Source: Alphaproteobacteria bacterium MarineAlpha12_Bin1
Lineage (GTDB): Bacteria; Pseudomonadota; Alphaproteobacteria; UBA6615
Assembly: GCA_002937505.1 (NCBI GenBank)
Contig: PTJY01000004.1
Span: 125,186-189,185 of the forward strand
Length of the DNA stretch: 64,000 nt
Direction: 5' to 3'
Positions 3,735 to 57,089 of this stretch are shown here, in pieces. A program made the translations under genes and the position numbers. The notes under the pieces are model-generated. The model saw nothing but the letters and a program-made list of their open reading frames with translations, had not been told where the DNA came from and searched no databases. The number at the start of each line of letters is the position of its first letter. Position 1 is the stretch's first letter.

Positions 3735-4604
3735 ATGACTGATTACGGTTTTATTGGATTAGGTAGTATGGGGTCTGCAATGAGCAGCCATTTGGTCAAT
3801 GCAGGCCTTACTCTTTATTGTTATGATTCAGCTGGAACTGCCAAGCTTGCTCCAAAAGGAGCAATTGTAAAATCTAGTATTGAGGAGGTAGCTAAACTCT
3901 CGGAAGTAATTTTTTTGAGTCTTCCTGATGGAAAAGTCGTTTTACAGGTGGCGCAAGAAATCCAGGATACGAAAGAGAGTAAAACGAAGATTGTCGTTGA
4001 TTTATCAACAACTGGCCCTGAATTCGCAATGTTGATTTCCTCATTGTTATCAAAATCCAATATAGTTTTTATTGATGCTCCTGTCAGTGGTGGAAGATCT
4101 GGTGCAGAAAACGCAAGTCTAGCCTTAATGTGCTCCGGTCCAGATAAAGAAATTAAAGATTTACGGAACTTATTCTCTCTTATTGCCTCTAATGTAATTC
4201 AAGTTGGTAAAGATCCTGGCCAGGCACAGGCAATGAAACTATTAAACAATTTCCTGTCAGCGACTTCTATGGCTGCCACTTCAGAGGCTGTATTATTTGG
4301 TAGATCTCATAATTTAGACCTGGATACTATGTTATCTGTCTTAAACGTCTCTAGTGGGAGAAATACTGCTACGGAAGACAAATTTCCTAATCGAATATTA
4401 ACAGAGACATATGATGCAGGATTTGCTGCGTCTCTTATGTCTAAAGACGTTAGCCTATTTAGAGAGCAAGTCGATAAAGCTGAGACGCCATCAAGAATTA
4501 TTGAGGTTATCTCTGCTCTTTGGAAAGAGACAAATGAATTTGCTCCAGGAGGTGATTTTACCGAAATATACCGTTACCTAAAAAAAACATCTAAGTCCCA
4601 GTAA
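3735..4604 (+). CDS. NAD(P)-dependent 3-hydroxyisobutyrate dehydrogenase family oxidoreductase
   Basis: Rossmann GxGxxG (IGLGSMGS) at the N-terminus and the 6-phosphogluconate-DH-like C-domain. Start placed at ATG 3735 with an AGGGG RBS 8 nt upstream. The ORF track starts at TTG 3714. Confidence 0.7.
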   Translation: MTDYGFIGLGSMGSAMSSHLVNAGLTLYCYDSAGTAKLAPKGAIVKSSIEEVAKLSEVIFLSLPDGKVVLQVAQEIQDTKESKTKIVVDLSTTGPEFAMLISSLLSKSNIVFIDAPVSGGRSGAENASLALMCSGPDKEIKDLRNLFSLIASNVIQVGKDPGQAQAMKLLNNFLSATSMAATSEAVLFGRSHNLDLDTMLSVLNVSSGRNTATEDKFPNRILTETYDAGFAASLMSKDVSLFREQVDKAETPSRIIEVISALWKETNEFAPGGDFTEIYRYLKKTSKSQ

Positions 4605-54899: not shown

Positions 54900-56288
54900 A
54901 TGCCAATTCATTCCTTCAACCCCTCTATATTAAGAGAGTATGACGTTCGTGGAATTGTTGGAGAAACATTATTTGATGATGATGCGCATATGTTAGGCAT
55001 CACATTTGGAAGTCGTCTAATAAAAGAGGGAGGGAAGAGCGTAAGTGTTGGATATGATGGACGGTTAACTAGCCCTAACCTCACTGAAGCCCTAATTGAT
55101 GGTCTGATCTCGTGTGGACTTAAAGTGTTTAATATTGGTTTAGGTCCGACACCTATGTTATCGTTTTCTACCCATTATCTTTCTTCAGACGCTGGCATAA
55201 TGGTCACTGGAAGCCATAATCCAAAAACTTATAATGGCTTTAAATTTTCTTTAAAAGGTAGGCCTTTCTATGGTCATGATATTTTGTCTCTAGCTGCTCT
55301 AGCAGAGTCTGGTGATGTTGAATCTGGTAAAGGGGTGTTGGAGAAGGTAAACATAGAAGATGACTATCTAAAACGGTTAACAAGAGATTTCTCTAGTCTT
55401 AGCTCTAGAGCTATATCCTGGGATCCAGGAAATGGTGCTACAGCTATCCTTCTTGATAAGTTATGCAAGATTATCCCAGGTCGTCACCACATAATTAATG
55501 GCTGGATAGATGGTAATTTTCCTAATCATCATCCAGATCCAACCATTCCTGAAAACTTAAGCCAGTTGATCGGATCTGTTCATGACAACTCATGTGAACT
55601 TGGTTTTGGGTTTGATGGCGATGGAGACAGAATAGGTGTGGTTGATGCAAAAGGAAGAATTATTTGGGCAGATCAATTAATGATGTTCTTTGCTAGAGAA
55701 ATTCTGAATAACCATCCTGGTGAGACAATAATCGCTGATGTTAAATCTAGTCAGGCGTTATTTGATGAAATTAAACGTTTGAATGGTACTCCACTTATGT
55801 GTGGCACAGGACACTCCCGAATAAGGTCGAAAATGATAGAGTTGTCAGCGCCATTAGCAGGTGAAATGAGTGGCCATATATTTTTTAATGATAGGTACTA
55901 TGGTTTTGATGACGCTTTGTATGCTTCACTTCGGCTTTTGTCGTTTTTGGACATGAATGACACTCCTCTTGACAAGCTTTATGATAGATTGCCTGTTTTG
56001 TTTAACACCCCTGAAATACGATTTTCGTGTCCCGAAGAAATGAAGTTCGAAGTTGTTGAGCAATTATCAAATACTTTGGATGAAGATACCAGAGATATAT
56101 CTAGAATTGACGGTATAAGAGTAAAAACTAATGATGGTTGGTGGCTTTTGAGGGCTTCAAACACACAAGACGCATTAGTTGCGAGATGCGAAAGTTATAG
56201 CGAAAACGGACTTAAAAACCTTATAGATGAATTAGTTAAAAATCTTTCAGCATTTGGCTTGTCGTTACCCAATAATATTATAGATTAG
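54900..56288 (+). CDS. Phosphomannomutase/phosphoglucomutase (alpha-D-phosphohexomutase family)
   Basis: Active-site Ser loop TGSHNP, metal-binding DGDGDR, sugar-binding GEMSGH. Confidence 0.85.
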   Translation: MPIHSFNPSILREYDVRGIVGETLFDDDAHMLGITFGSRLIKEGGKSVSVGYDGRLTSPNLTEALIDGLISCGLKVFNIGLGPTPMLSFSTHYLSSDAGIMVTGSHNPKTYNGFKFSLKGRPFYGHDILSLAALAESGDVESGKGVLEKVNIEDDYLKRLTRDFSSLSSRAISWDPGNGATAILLDKLCKIIPGRHHIINGWIDGNFPNHHPDPTIPENLSQLIGSVHDNSCELGFGFDGDGDRIGVVDAKGRIIWADQLMMFFAREILNNHPGETIIADVKSSQALFDEIKRLNGTPLMCGTGHSRIRSKMIELSAPLAGEMSGHIFFNDRYYGFDDALYASLRLLSFLDMNDTPLDKLYDRLPVLFNTPEIRFSCPEEMKFEVVEQLSNTLDEDTRDISRIDGIRVKTNDGWWLLRASNTQDALVARCESYSENGLKNLIDELVKNLSAFGLSLPNNIID

Positions 56289-56378
56289 TAAGGTACACTG
56301 AAAAGGTGTGCTTTCCGACTCCTTTCTAGTAAGGTATAGATCTAAGGTAATTATTAACAACTGAAAGGAGGTGATCCG

Positions 56379-56471
56379 ATGTCTAACGGATTGGTGATGG
56401 CAAAAGCTATATTACGAGGCACTGGTGACCCTCAATCGATGGGTGGATATATTCGACACCTAAGGGTCTGA
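56379..56471 (+). CDS. Candidate 30-codon small ORF behind a near-perfect Shine-Dalgarno (MSNGLVMAKAILRGTGDPQSMGGYIRHLRV)
   Basis: AAAGGAGGTGATCC (56364-56377) is a 14-nt complement of the 16S 3' tail. It sits 7 nt before the ATG. A rho-independent terminator follows ~125 nt downstream. No homologue recognised. Confidence 0.25.
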   Translation: MSNGLVMAKAILRGTGDPQSMGGYIRHLRV

Positions 56472-56595
56472 GGTTTACTGCATGGGTGTATCGTATTCTG
56501 GTGTTAGGCATGTATAATCGTCAATATGTGTGTCTAAAAGCCAAGAAAATTTTTTAATATAAAAATTTTTTAAAGATCACCTAACGTTTTTAAAA

Positions 56596-56631
56596 GTGCT
56601 GTCCTTCTTTTGTAAGGATGGCACTTTTTTT
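56596..56631 (+). terminator. Rho-independent terminator
   Basis: GTGCTGTCCTT-cttttgt-AAGGATGGCAC (11-bp stem with two G.U pairs) followed by TTTTTTT. Located between convergent genes. Confidence 0.6.
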
Positions 56632-56645
56632 GCTATTGGAATTAT

Positions 56646-57089
56646 TTATTTCCTTTTAATAAACACAGAAGATTTGAGTGTGAGTACAATATTCCCATTC
56701 TGATTAGTTAAATCACCAGTTGTAGTCACAATACCCAGTTTTGGTCTGCTTTTAGAGGTTCTTTTATCCTTAATCACTAAACTAGCACTCAGTGTGTCTC
56801 CTGGTCTGACTGGATTTAGCCACTTCAGATTTTCAACACCAGGAGAGCCCATACTTTGTAAATTCAGCAACAGACCCTCACAAGCCAAGCGCATCCAAAT
56901 GCTTGCAGTATACCAGCCACTTGCAATTATACCTTTGTATAAAGAACTTTTAGCATAACTTTCATCGATATGGATGAGCTGGGGGTCGAATTTCTCTGCG
57001 TAATTAATCATAGACTTACGATTTAATTTATAGCTTCCTAAATCATATTTAGTTCCTATAACTAAATCTTCATAATAAATATTTGACAT
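56646..57089 (-). CDS. MaoC-like (R)-specific enoyl-CoA hydratase / hot-dog fold dehydratase
   Basis: Hot-dog fold MaoC motifs (IHIDESYA...GIIASGWYT). Confidence 0.7.
   Translation of the reverse strand: MSNIYYEDLVIGTKYDLGSYKLNRKSMINYAEKFDPQLIHIDESYAKSSLYKGIIASGWYTASIWMRLACEGLLLNLQSMGSPGVENLKWLNPVRPGDTLSASLVIKDKRTSKSRPKLGIVTTTGDLTNQNGNIVLTLKSSVFIKRK

Follow-up and report, generated by a model that had tools for sequence, protein, structure and literature searches.

The closest described counterparts of the locus analysed here are rreB and rreR, reported as 'small mRNAs with a unique extended Shine-Dalgarno' (Hahn et al. 2017, RNA Biol 14:1353; PMC5711450). rreB is a 165-nt transcript that is weakly translated, binds tightly to 30S subunits and co-sediments with them, and this co-sedimentation depends on the 5' part of its complementarity block (PMC5711450). 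Its Shine-Dalgarno (SD) sequence is predicted to be paired except for the 5'-most 5 nt, and changing its GUG to UAG raised the half-life from 10 to 37 min (PMC5711450). A second described element is the CC2171 sRNA of Caulobacter crescentus (RF01867), which was validated by Northern blot in Methylorubrum extorquens (bioRxiv 10.1101/2022.01.24.477521).

The window, that is, the whole 64-kb stretch of DNA analysed, contains at about 56347-56635 (+ strand), in an intergenic position, what we infer to be a free-standing small RNA gene of about 285 nt (predicted extent). It adds a divergent member to a known alphaproteobacterial family and is not a new kind of element; that family (the published rre small mRNAs and Rfam CC2171) explains the finding. 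It is likely that both parts of the following hold: the locus belongs to the rre/CC2171 family, and its RNA docks on the ribosome through the SD.

An extended Shine-Dalgarno sequence and its surroundings

The elements that delimit the locus are the following.

56313-56340, + strand: putative sigma-70-type promoter, with -35 TTCCGA (56313-56318), a 16-nt spacer and -10 TATAGA (56335-56340)
56356-56361, + strand: conserved 5' leader AACAAC, which fits the Rfam CC2171 consensus cAAcaAuc
56363-56377, + strand: extended Shine-Dalgarno GAAAGGAGGTGATCC, a 15-nt complement of the 16S rRNA 3' tail
56379-56471, + strand: short ORF, ATG plus 30 codons, MSNGLVMAKAILRGTGDPQSMGGYIRHLRV, directly after the complementarity region
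56592-56635, + strand: intrinsic terminator, with a stem at 56592-56628 followed by a T-run to 56635

A first-pass annotation of the window had pointed to a 14-nt anti-SD complement, AAAGGAGGTGATCC, at 56364-56377, and to an ATG at 56379 opening a 30-codon ORF (56379-56471). Both are confirmed, and the pairing starts one base earlier, at G56363, which gives the 15-mer GAAAGGAGGTGATCC. The distance of 7 nt to the ATG is correct as the spacing of the GGAGG core, but not for the 14-mer, which ends 1 nt before the ATG. The site had also been ranked as the strongest ribosome-binding site of the window, and this holds in comparison with ORFs of at least 100 aa, none of which has more than 7 nt of upstream complementarity. 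The 14-mer is unique within the 64 kb, even at 2 mismatches.

Because the organism's own 16S 3' end lies outside the window, complementarity was judged against the conserved alphaproteobacterial tail CUGGAUCACCUCCUUUC. Fifteen positions (56363-56377) form Watson-Crick pairs with it and G56378 may add a wobble with U; the rre criterion is at least 16 contiguous nt up to the start codon. In GC-rich members of the clade the 16th position is a C, so that complementarity is 15 nt. The predicted duplex with this assumed tail reaches -29.9 kcal/mol, versus -13.3 for the helix between the SD and a distal block described below. Under our model, the 16S 3' tail of the lineage would read ...GGAUCACCUCCUUUC.

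Upstream, a block CTTT(G/C/T)CGACTC ... (T)CTAGA/TATAGA/CTACA is kept in all eight clade members; a simple promoter scan made no call at this -35/-10 block, and it is from its conservation that we infer a promoter. Transcription would start at about 56347-56355; for rreB, the mapped start precedes the complementarity region by 8 nt (PMC5711450). At the other end, the terminator had been placed at 56596-56631; it is present, with the slightly different limits listed above. Its stem is 99% paired across the clade, with five pairs changed on both sides. The next gene downstream, a MaoC-like gene (56646-57089), is convergent, as in all syntenic relatives, and since it ends at 56646 the terminator is probably bidirectional.

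Relation to the known family

Scanning alphaproteobacterial genomes with a 22-nt pattern of the 5' block, GAAAGGAGGTGATCCNRTGTCT, yielded at least 120 loci, in which the SD block is invariant and the flanking AACAAC and RTGTCT are kept; the AACAAC leader is present in 8/8 clade members and in nearly all matched loci. Among the matches listed are Bradyrhizobium loci with 14-aa ORFs and Rhodobacterales loci with 18-aa ORFs, to which the rreB and rreR peptides (PMC5711450) correspond. Clustering of neighbouring ORFs over these loci, blurred by spurious high-GC ORFs, gave no universally conserved neighbour, and the genomic context of the family was likewise not conserved in Hahn et al. (PMC5711450).

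Conservation in related genomes had been proposed as a check, and it comes out in favour of the locus: syntenic homologs occur in seven other genomes, and identity to the closest relative (L124) is 96% over the 5' 80 nt and 94% in the distal block, compared with 64-72% at third codon positions of the neighbouring genes. By these comparisons the locus, which is syntenic, is under purifying selection. The RNA is absent from L125 and L139 (PMM 54-56% identical).

Could the block be a chance match, or the decayed fragment of an rRNA operon, antisense to the 16S 3' end? The 15-mer is the reverse complement of that end and also a common PCR primer sequence. However, rRNA similarity is nil beyond the 15-mer, the motifs on both sides of it are conserved in at least 120 loci, and synteny and purifying selection speak against a relic. 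The conservation data thus lead us to reject this reading, to which we give practically no credit.

A search at the Rfam gathering threshold found no match at the locus, and a search for tmRNA and tRNA found none there either. Nevertheless, the window matches about 27 of the first 30 positions of the RF01867 model, with a score of 22.6 bits (E = 0.0094), where the gathering threshold is 75. Scores are 27-38 bits for relatives in the clade and 77-97 bits for canonical members, and the model also misses the members from Sphingomonadales and Rhodobacterales. The 5' consensus block, a predicted closing helix after UCU (called state 2 below) and the terminator of RF01867 are all present. The seven syntenic homologs form a longer subfamily, of about 270-290 nt, which is under the Rfam threshold.

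With rreB and rreR, the locus shares an alphaproteobacterial host, what would be a free-standing small transcript, an intrinsic terminator, the same GAAAGGAGGUGAUCC block, which complements the entire 16S 3' tail and follows an AACAA leader, a start codon, UCU and short ORF directly after the block, and an SD predicted to be mostly base-paired, its 5'-most nucleotides excepted. It differs in size (about 285 versus 165 nt for rreB), in its start codon (ATG, which Hahn et al. note for Azospirillum, versus GTG), in its complementarity (15 nt, or 16 with a G-U pair, versus 17) and in its ORF (30 codons encoding an unrelated peptide, versus 14 or 18). The sequestering strand of rreB is a UCACCUC within the ORF, at a distance of about 25 nt; here, the strand that would sequester the SD is found about 200 nt downstream, where it would close a body of several hairpins. 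The features in common with RF01867 are the 5' consensus cAAcaAucGAAAGGAGGUGAUCCAGUGUCU, a variable interior with a terminator hairpin, and a closing helix over a long range, from right after UCU to just before the terminator (state 2 here). The interior is, however, unrelated and about 120 nt longer, and the closing helix, at the same position, is AACG..GGUGA:UCACC..CGUU instead of CAUUGUC:GACAAUG.

A different use of the same RNA is conceivable, namely that of a conventional trans-acting sRNA, whose 5' block or GAUCACCU block would serve as a seed for mRNA targets and not for the ribosome. Its own terminator and putative promoter, its structured body and its predicted single-stranded 5' end agree with this, and Rfam catalogues CC2171 as an sRNA. 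Yet the invariant block matches the complement of the 16S tail exactly, and an invariant start codon comes after it at canonical spacing. Co-sedimentation of rreB with 30S subunits requires the 5' part of its block (PMC5711450), and a seed identical over five orders with no conserved neighbour or target gene would be unusual. We therefore hold a conventional sRNA to be very unlikely, and keep docking on the ribosome as the preferred reading.

A structured body with two possible closures

The first-pass annotation had suggested predicting the fold of the region. The plus strand has a good predicted fold, with an MFE of -92.6 kcal/mol and a z of -4.83 relative to shuffles, and the minus strand a poor one (-56.8 kcal/mol, z = -2.9). 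In the clade, 25 pairs are changed on both sides, versus 14.3 +/- 2.2 in shuffled alignments and 7-15 in slid controls. Four hairpins make up the interior, and two further segments would close it.

56385-56398, + strand: 5' strand of the state-2 closing helix, AACG (56385-56388) and GGTGAT (56393-56398), starting 7 nt after the A of the ATG
56397-56410, + strand: hairpin P2, AUGGC-AAAA-GCUAU, with alignment columns 45:56 changed on both sides in three sequences
56413-56495, + strand: hairpin P3, long and irregular, with an apical hairpin at 56440-56462 and the conserved motifs CGAGGCACUGG and GAGGUUUAC
56499-56543, + strand: hairpin P4, with 6/6 consensus pairs changed on both sides
56544-56571, + strand: hairpin P5, A/U-rich, with 4/5 consensus pairs changed on both sides
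56575-56588, + strand: distal conserved block GATCACCTAACGTT, predicted to pair with the SD spacer (state 1) or with GGTGA and AACG (state 2)

In P3, helices 5-7 are 83-96% paired, with eight pairs changed on both sides; the P4 region is just 54% identical to L124. A promoter-like block and a covarying terminator bracket a body whose interior helices covary, and the closing helix is AGGUGAUC:GAUCACCU in the predictions of RNAfold and of RNAalifold alike, as expected for the small structured transcript, with an SD that long-range pairing can sequester, that had been proposed from the sequence. Three labels had been offered for it (micro-protein gene, leader peptide, sRNA with a sequestrable SD), and the last is the best fit.

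The pairing partner of the SD had been seen as the 8-mer GATCACCT at 56575-56582, about 200 nt downstream, and it is indeed the exact reverse complement of 56369-56376. This 8-mer occurs four times in the window where 1.24 are expected, so the inverted repeat by itself is weak evidence. The repeat is preserved in seven of the eight homologs from other genomes, and the distal GAUCACCU...CGUU block and the 5' block are nearly invariant across the syntenic homologs. In the predicted fold, GAAAGG (56363-56368) is free and AGGTGATC (56369-56376) is paired; the pairing probability of GGUGAUC exceeds 0.93 in the seven clade members evaluated (L138 was outside that run), and the AAA positions of the SD block are predicted to be unpaired family-wide.

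A second closure uses the same distal strand: TCACC and CGTT can pair with GGTGA and AACG, all cells being paired across the eight sequences. When the SD and the AUG are forced open by a folding constraint, at a cost of 5-14 kcal/mol, this state-2 helix becomes the MFE closing helix in 7/8 homologs. Three conserved positions of the distal block (G235, A236 and U242) are used in state 1 only, and C34, G35, C245 and G246, which are conserved as well, in state 2 only. Covariation is uninformative between the two closing helices, because both strands of each are invariant in the clade alignment.

How might such an RNA meet the ribosome? By analogy with the rreB experiments, a 15-nt complement of the whole single-stranded 16S 3' tail should bind the 30S subunit far more tightly than an ordinary mRNA does. 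In the free RNA (state 1), only GAAAGG and the AACAAC leader would be single-stranded, AGGUGAUC being held with the distal GAUCACCU in an 8-bp helix that closes the multi-hairpin body, a prediction backed by sequence conservation. In the captured RNA (state 2), pairing with the 16S tail would nucleate at the GAAAGG toehold, and the tail would push the distal strand aside. Once free, that strand may re-pair with AACG...GGUGAU, 7 nt past the AUG and in the same place as the canonical closing helix of the family. A helix so near the AUG would hinder start-codon placement and elongation, and the ORF would therefore be translated weakly. We consider a two-state switch around the ribosome-binding site, as modelled here, slightly more probable than its absence.

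Is masking of the SD a trait of the whole family? An exact-match search across the family for an internal mimic of the 16S tail gave a small excess (5.03 versus 4.34 nt), and an energy-based search a mean z of -1.18, with 26% of sequences at p <= 0.05. Mimics of at least 7 nt are confined to some clades, so that sequestration of the SD may not be universal; it would be clade-specific, or recurrent across the family.

With its short ORF, its SD predicted to be sequestered, its pairing between distant 5' and 3' segments and its terminator, the locus also resembles leader-peptide attenuators, and the fold-back inhibition of hok-like mRNAs. An attenuator needs a gene to attenuate; in the window and in all syntenic relatives, no co-oriented gene follows the terminator, the MaoC-like gene being convergent, and family context is unconserved. 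We therefore reject this hypothesis and with it the label of leader peptide. The type I toxin mRNAs of the hok/sok kind share with the locus a small ORF, a ribosome-binding site masked by 5'-3' pairing and a compact stable transcript. In contrast to them, the peptides here are hydrophilic, without transmembrane segment and variable between relatives. No antisense RNA is evident at the locus, whose minus strand has a poor predicted fold, and the SD, an extreme 16S complement, is conserved in the class as a whole. The likeness is one of RNA logic only, and a type I toxin-antitoxin system is rejected as well. Taken as one alternative, attenuator or toxin appears highly improbable, and we return to an RNA that docks on the ribosome.

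RNA or peptide as the selected entity

The remaining question is whether the ORF matters through its product. In a true micro-protein gene, the 30-aa peptide (14-25 aa in other clades) would be functional, and the extended SD and the structure would merely tune expression. The ATG is at the same position in 8/8 clade members, each with an open frame of at least 24 codons (homolog ORFs have 24, 25, 28 or 30), and the clade has an invariant ATGTCTAACG and a semi-conserved N-terminus, MSNGLV.AKA..R.TGDP. ORF length is constant within clades (14, 18 or 25 codons), the ORFs that follow this SD at three loci (L052, L082 and L032) have 48-60 codons and N-termini resembling signal peptides, and Hahn et al. 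detected weak translation and called the rre peptides conserved within clades (PMC5711450). Over the first 19 codons, pN/pS in the window's clade is 0.42-0.61 in frame versus 0.7-1.2 out of frame; this is a weak hint of coding constraint, confounded by a single deep AT/GC split and by hairpin P2.

Other observations speak against the peptide as the functional product. The C-terminal part is unconserved, and in L124 a 2-nt indel shifts the frame and affects the C-terminal third. The ORFs of L006 and L011 are frameshifted relative to each other, and in the L138 peptide most of the positions that the RNA leaves free are different. Values of pN/pS for Sphingomonadales, Rhodobacterales, Bradyrhizobiaceae and Hyphomicrobiales are 0.88-1.24, no better than those of shifted frames, and third positions show no excess of variation. 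The peptides are dissimilar between clades, and 'conserved' peptide motifs overlap RNA pairing segments (for example, TWILAS from CUGGAUC..GCCUC). Searches of Pfam and NCBIfam with the peptide gave no match. Synthetic RreB and RreR peptides were unstructured, and 20-fold overexpression of rreB left growth unaffected (PMC5711450). The label of micro-protein gene is therefore doubtful, with frames shifted in relatives and selection on the peptide absent in other clades, and we regard a functional micro-protein as unlikely.

The comparative data (helices that covary, ORFs with shifted frames, and a pN/pS close to 1 in four clades) point instead to the RNA as the selected entity. What is conserved would be the RNA, through its 5' block, its distal block and its covarying helices, and the peptide sequence is probably not the effector; that it is irrelevant altogether seems to us a reasonably good bet.

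Implications

The family spans the Alphaproteobacteria and carries the strongest natural 16S complement described, and its function is still called 'elusive'. The present locus adds to it a marine, AT-rich, long-form subfamily that the Rfam threshold had missed. As a tentative proposal, which we hold to be possible rather than probable, rre/CC2171 elements could be class-wide structured non-coding RNAs that dock on ribosomes, and not mRNAs for small proteins. A toehold-gated complement of the 16S tail, with GAAAGG free and the rest masked by an internal mimic, would bring a covarying body to the 30S platform, and the only task of the start codon and short ORF would be to let the RNA engage the ribosome and then clear it. 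The long form would be represented by the window's clade, with a single 3' strand that would mask the SD in one state and block the beginning of the ORF in the other. If the RNA is indeed what is selected, and the two-state arrangement is real, the family would offer a tractable natural model of toehold-gated ribosome capture, and rre/CC2171 RNAs might regulate 30S availability or initiation.

A small mRNA-like gene between convergent genes

The RNA locus and its immediate neighbors comprise the following elements.

Features of the RNA locus (window positions)
End at 56288, + strand: phosphomannomutase (PMM) gene, upstream of the RNA
56364-56377, + strand: 14-mer AAAGGAGGTGATCC, complement of the 16S rRNA 3' tail (sequence inspection)
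56379-56471, + strand: short ORF of 30 codons opening with ATG (ORF call)
56575-56582, + strand: distal repeat GATCACCT, exact reverse complement of 56369-56376
56592-56628, + strand, T-run to 56635: stem of the intrinsic terminator of the RNA (terminator-like hairpin)
End at 56646, - strand: MaoC-like dehydratase gene, convergent, downstream of the RNA

The 14-nt complement reported by the first-pass annotation is present, and G56363 lengthens it to the 15-mer GAAAGGAGGTGATCC, hereafter the Shine-Dalgarno sequence (SD). Allowing up to two mismatches, the 14-mer has no second occurrence in the window. Because none of the 71 ORFs of at least 100 aa has more than 7 nt of upstream complementarity to the 16S tail, the SD is by far the strongest ribosome binding site in the window, as had been proposed. 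The ATG, its ORF and the exact inverted repeat were likewise found where annotated, and the terminator, previously placed at 56596-56631, corresponds to the hairpin listed. With four occurrences of GATCACCT in the window (1.24 expected), the 8-nt inverted repeat is weak evidence when taken alone; it is credible because it is conserved among relatives.

The RNA lies between convergent genes (PMM on the + strand, MaoC-like on the - strand), a layout that contradicts the leader-peptide option initially considered. An attenuator or a type I toxin is contradicted by the same layout, as well as by the hydrophilic character of the peptides, and seems to us very improbable. The terminator hairpin (56592-56635) has an A-run on its upstream side and a T-run on its downstream side, and probably terminates both the RNA and the convergent MaoC-like transcript, whose stop codon is at 56646. 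Directly 3' of the PMM stop codon lies GUACAC-N7-GUGUGC with a trailing UUUCC (56293-56314), a small hairpin that shares positions with the putative -35 of the RNA gene; the upstream operon may use it as a weak terminator. Elsewhere in the window, a tRNA-Ser(GCU) gene (1562-1653) is the sole Rfam or ARAGORN match.

Conservation in syntenic relatives

The window matches marine MAG GCA_002717545.1 and Tara Oceans contigs, and seven further syntenic copies of the RNA were reached via PMM homologs; with the window they form the clade discussed below.

Syntenic copies of the RNA (L-numbers are loci from other genomes or contigs)
L124: closest relative; PMM 86% identical to that of the window
L132, L134, L135, L136, L137: PMM ~60%; intergenic ~56-61% GC; RNA after an extra luciferase-like gene
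L138: PMM 58%; AT-rich Tara MAG labelled Rhodospirillaceae

The RNA is absent from two PMM-homolog loci, L125 and L139. All eight copies share a 5' block, AACAA..GAAAGGAGGUG(A/G)UCC.AUGUCUAACG, an interior block, CGAG(G/A)CACUGG, and a distal block, (G/A)AUCACC...CGUU, followed by the terminator; conservation of the paired segments in related genomes was a check the first-pass annotation had suggested. Between the window and L124, the first 80 columns of the RNA are 96% identical, the distal block 94% and the interior 54-76%, versus 64-72% for third codon positions of the flanking genes. Next to such figures, a chance match or an rRNA relic is hardly worth entertaining.

In the GC-rich relatives, a luciferase-like monooxygenase gene lies between PMM and the RNA (L132, 5439-6551; L134, 2616-3728; L135, 5419-6531; L136, 5062-6174; L137, 4946-6058). 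It is absent from the window, L124 and L138; L139 has it but neither the RNA nor the MaoC-like gene.

Relationship to the rre/CC2171 family

At gathering thresholds, Rfam had no match at the RNA locus. A permissive scan returned one weak match, to RF01867 (Caulobacter sRNA CC2171; 22.6 bits, E = 0.0094, for a gathering threshold of 75 bits), which rests on near-perfect agreement over the first 30 model positions, cAAcaAucGAAAGGAGGUGAUCCAGUGUCU. In a separate scan, the clade copies scored 27-38 bits, and this long-form subfamily (~270-290 nt) therefore falls below the Rfam threshold. RF01867 at threshold detects 6 of 18 motif-bearing loci tested, and the tested L008 (Sphingomonadales), L001 (Rhodobacterales) and L035 (Rhodospirillales) gave no match; the true distribution is accordingly wider than the Rfam family shows.

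Scanning one genome per species with the pattern GAAAGGAGGTGATCCNRTGTCT yielded at least 120 loci. Among the matches listed, nearly all are labelled Alphaproteobacteria or unassigned Pseudomonadota/Proteobacteria (one MAG has a Gammaproteobacteria label), the named groups being Sphingomonadales, Rhodobacterales, Hyphomicrobiales, Caulobacterales, Acetobacteraceae, Stellaceae and Rhodospirillales. In these listed loci the SD is followed by an ORF of 14-26 codons starting with MS(H/R/S), longer in L052, L082 and L032. The 22-nt rre 5' motif also occurs in eight viral or proviral contigs of IMG/VR (L140-L147).

The 14-aa Bradyrhizobium and 18-aa Rhodobacterales ORFs of the scan are the published rreB and rreR genes (Hahn et al. 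2017, PMC5711450). The rreB transcript measures 165 nt, of which 17 are complementary to the 16S 3' end, and encodes 14 aa; rreR of Rhodobacterales encodes 18 aa. rreB co-sediments with 30S subunits, an association that depends on the 5'-most nucleotides of its 16S complement; its translation is weak, and a GUG to UAG change stabilised it from 10 to 37 min. Its SD is predicted to be paired except for the 5'-most 5 nt, the proposed seed, and the authors call rre function "elusive" (PMC5711450). CC2171 was seen by Northern blot in Methylorubrum extorquens, without an assigned function (bioRxiv 10.1101/2022.01.24.477521); our literature search on the family found no later functional work. That the RNA is an ordinary base-pairing sRNA, the class under which Rfam lists CC2171, appears improbable beside the SD and ORF found in the listed loci.

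We conclude that the RNA locus is a divergent, previously undescribed member of this known family. Compared with rreB, it is longer, has an ATG start and 15 rather than 17 nt of complementarity to 16S, and places its predicted masking strand distally, where that of rreB is proximal. All of these differences vary a published theme, and the locus would not surprise a specialist who knows the 2017 paper.

Two predicted pairing states

The + strand folds at -92.6 kcal/mol (z = -4.83), and the - strand much less well. RNAalifold, applied to the eight sequences, predicted ten helices.

Predicted elements (RNAalifold), 5' to 3'
Closing helix: AGGUGAUC:GAUCACCU, with a short GAAA:UUU extension outside
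Local helix of 2 bp: just 3' of the start codon
P2: hairpin
P3: long and irregular, two stacked helices and an apical hairpin
P4 and P5: hairpins, followed by the terminator

In this consensus 91.9% of cells are paired, and 25 pairs are changed on both sides, versus 14.3 +/- 2.2 in column shuffles and 7-15 with slid partners. The covarying pairs lie in P2 to P5 and in the terminator. With its SD side fixed, the closing helix has no room to covary. The comparison shows a conserved, structured locus under RNA-level selection, with a conserved distal GAUCACCU...CGUU block.

The suggestion that the SD can be sequestered by long-range pairing finds its counterpart in the predicted closing helix (state 1): single-sequence partition functions, run on all clade members but L138, gave a probability above 0.93 in each of the seven for pairing of GGUGAUC with the distal block. 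When the SD and AUG were forced open, as a stand-in for 30S binding, the minimum free energy structure re-closed the molecule via AACG:CGUU and GGUGA:UCACC in seven of eight sequences (state 2), at a cost of 5-6 kcal/mol in AT-rich and 9-14 kcal/mol in GC-rich members. All cells of the state-2 helix are paired in all eight sequences. This helix starts 7 nt downstream of the A of the start codon, the very position of the canonical closing helix in RF01867 (CAUUGUC:GACAAUG) and in Sphingomonadales (CAUGGUUCAGC:GCUGACCAUG). G235, A236 and U242 of the distal block have a role in state 1 only; C245 and G246, with C34 and G35, have one in state 2 only. Each state accounts for conserved positions that the other leaves unexplained. 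Computed as bimolecular duplexes, the helices of states 1 and 2 differ little in energy (-13.3 and -12.1 kcal/mol), and the SD duplex with an assumed alphaproteobacterial 16S tail is predicted at -29.9 kcal/mol.

Is the peptide under selection?

The question arises as to whether the short ORF encodes a functional micro-protein. Peptides are unrelated between clades, and no Pfam or NCBIfam model was matched by the family peptides. In four clades of constant ORF length, in-frame pN/pS is no lower than in both shifted frames, and third positions are not more variable.

In-frame pN/pS by clade
Sphingomonadales: 1.24 (26 unique sequences)
Rhodobacterales: 0.88 (9 unique sequences)
Bradyrhizobiaceae: 1.04 (8 unique sequences)
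25-codon Hyphomicrobiales type: 0.94 (20 unique sequences)

Nucleotide-similar homologs are mutually frameshifted (L006 versus L011, L124 versus the window). In the window clade, ORF lengths are 30, 28, 24 and 25 codons. The micro-protein option raised at first reading keeps an open ORF whose first 18 residues are semi-conserved, and loses ground with divergent C-termini and the L124 frameshift. Over the first 19 codons, pN/pS is 0.42-0.61 in frame versus 0.7-1.2 out of frame; this low value stems largely from a single AT/GC split (0.93 among the five GC-rich members only), and the "synonymous" changes double as compensatory changes of hairpin P2. We regard a functional micro-protein as unlikely. 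The peptide sequence is probably without importance, a reading in tension with the published view of conserved peptides. Start-codon engagement, on the other hand, is probably important, given an invariant ATGTCTAACG in sequences that were collected by synteny, not by pattern.

Three loci have an identical extended SD plus ATG/GTG-TCT before longer ORFs of 48-60 codons: L052 (Azospirillum MAG, ~3845-4040), L082 (~1322-1520) and L032 (Acetobacteraceae MAG, ~2531-2690). Their N-termini resemble signal peptides (for example, MSHGASPVVAALFGLATLLTAGIANADC...), and Pfam and NCBIfam gave no match to them. These ORFs may encode genuine small secreted proteins that share the rre ribosome binding site.

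Putative SD masking across the family

Across the family, predictions leave the AAA of GAAAGG unpaired (pairing p 0.16-0.31), with intermediate values for the remaining SD block. In four groups the RNA contains an exact internal copy of the 16S tail, at least 7 nt long.

Internal 16S-tail copies
Window clade: 8 nt, distal
Bradyrhizobiaceae: UCACCUC, ~25 nt downstream, in agreement with the prediction of Hahn et al. (PMC5711450)
L058/L089: 11 nt, GGATCACCTCC, ~+122 from GAAAGG inside the RNA body, the longest internal mimic found
L016: 10 nt

An energy-based mimic score gave a mean z of -1.18 against shuffles, with p <= 0.05 for 26% of sequences. A split mimic, CUGGAUC-N3-GCCUC, is found at +54 or +57 in 17 of 117 listed loci; a crude control gave 3. 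This mimic could pair with GGAGG and GAUCCAG of the SD, in which case the Rfam closing helix could not form at the same time. Loci with this split mimic include L011, L030, L031, L047, L049, L061, L085, L086 and L095, at ~+54 to +72 from GAAAGG, and it coincides with a 'TWILAS' peptide motif. SD masking is thus only partly a family trait: it is recurrent, via different partners, and may not be universal.

A possible mechanism

For rreB, a homolog, experiments showed docking on 30S through the extended SD, weak translation and a start-codon-dependent decay (PMC5711450). For the window RNA we propose that GAAAGG would act as a toehold, from which the 16S tail would displace the distal strand from the SD; the displaced strand may then form the state-2 helix at +7, which would limit start-codon accommodation and elongation. 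For the remarkable rre/CC2171 family, the comparisons made here sharpen a testable model.
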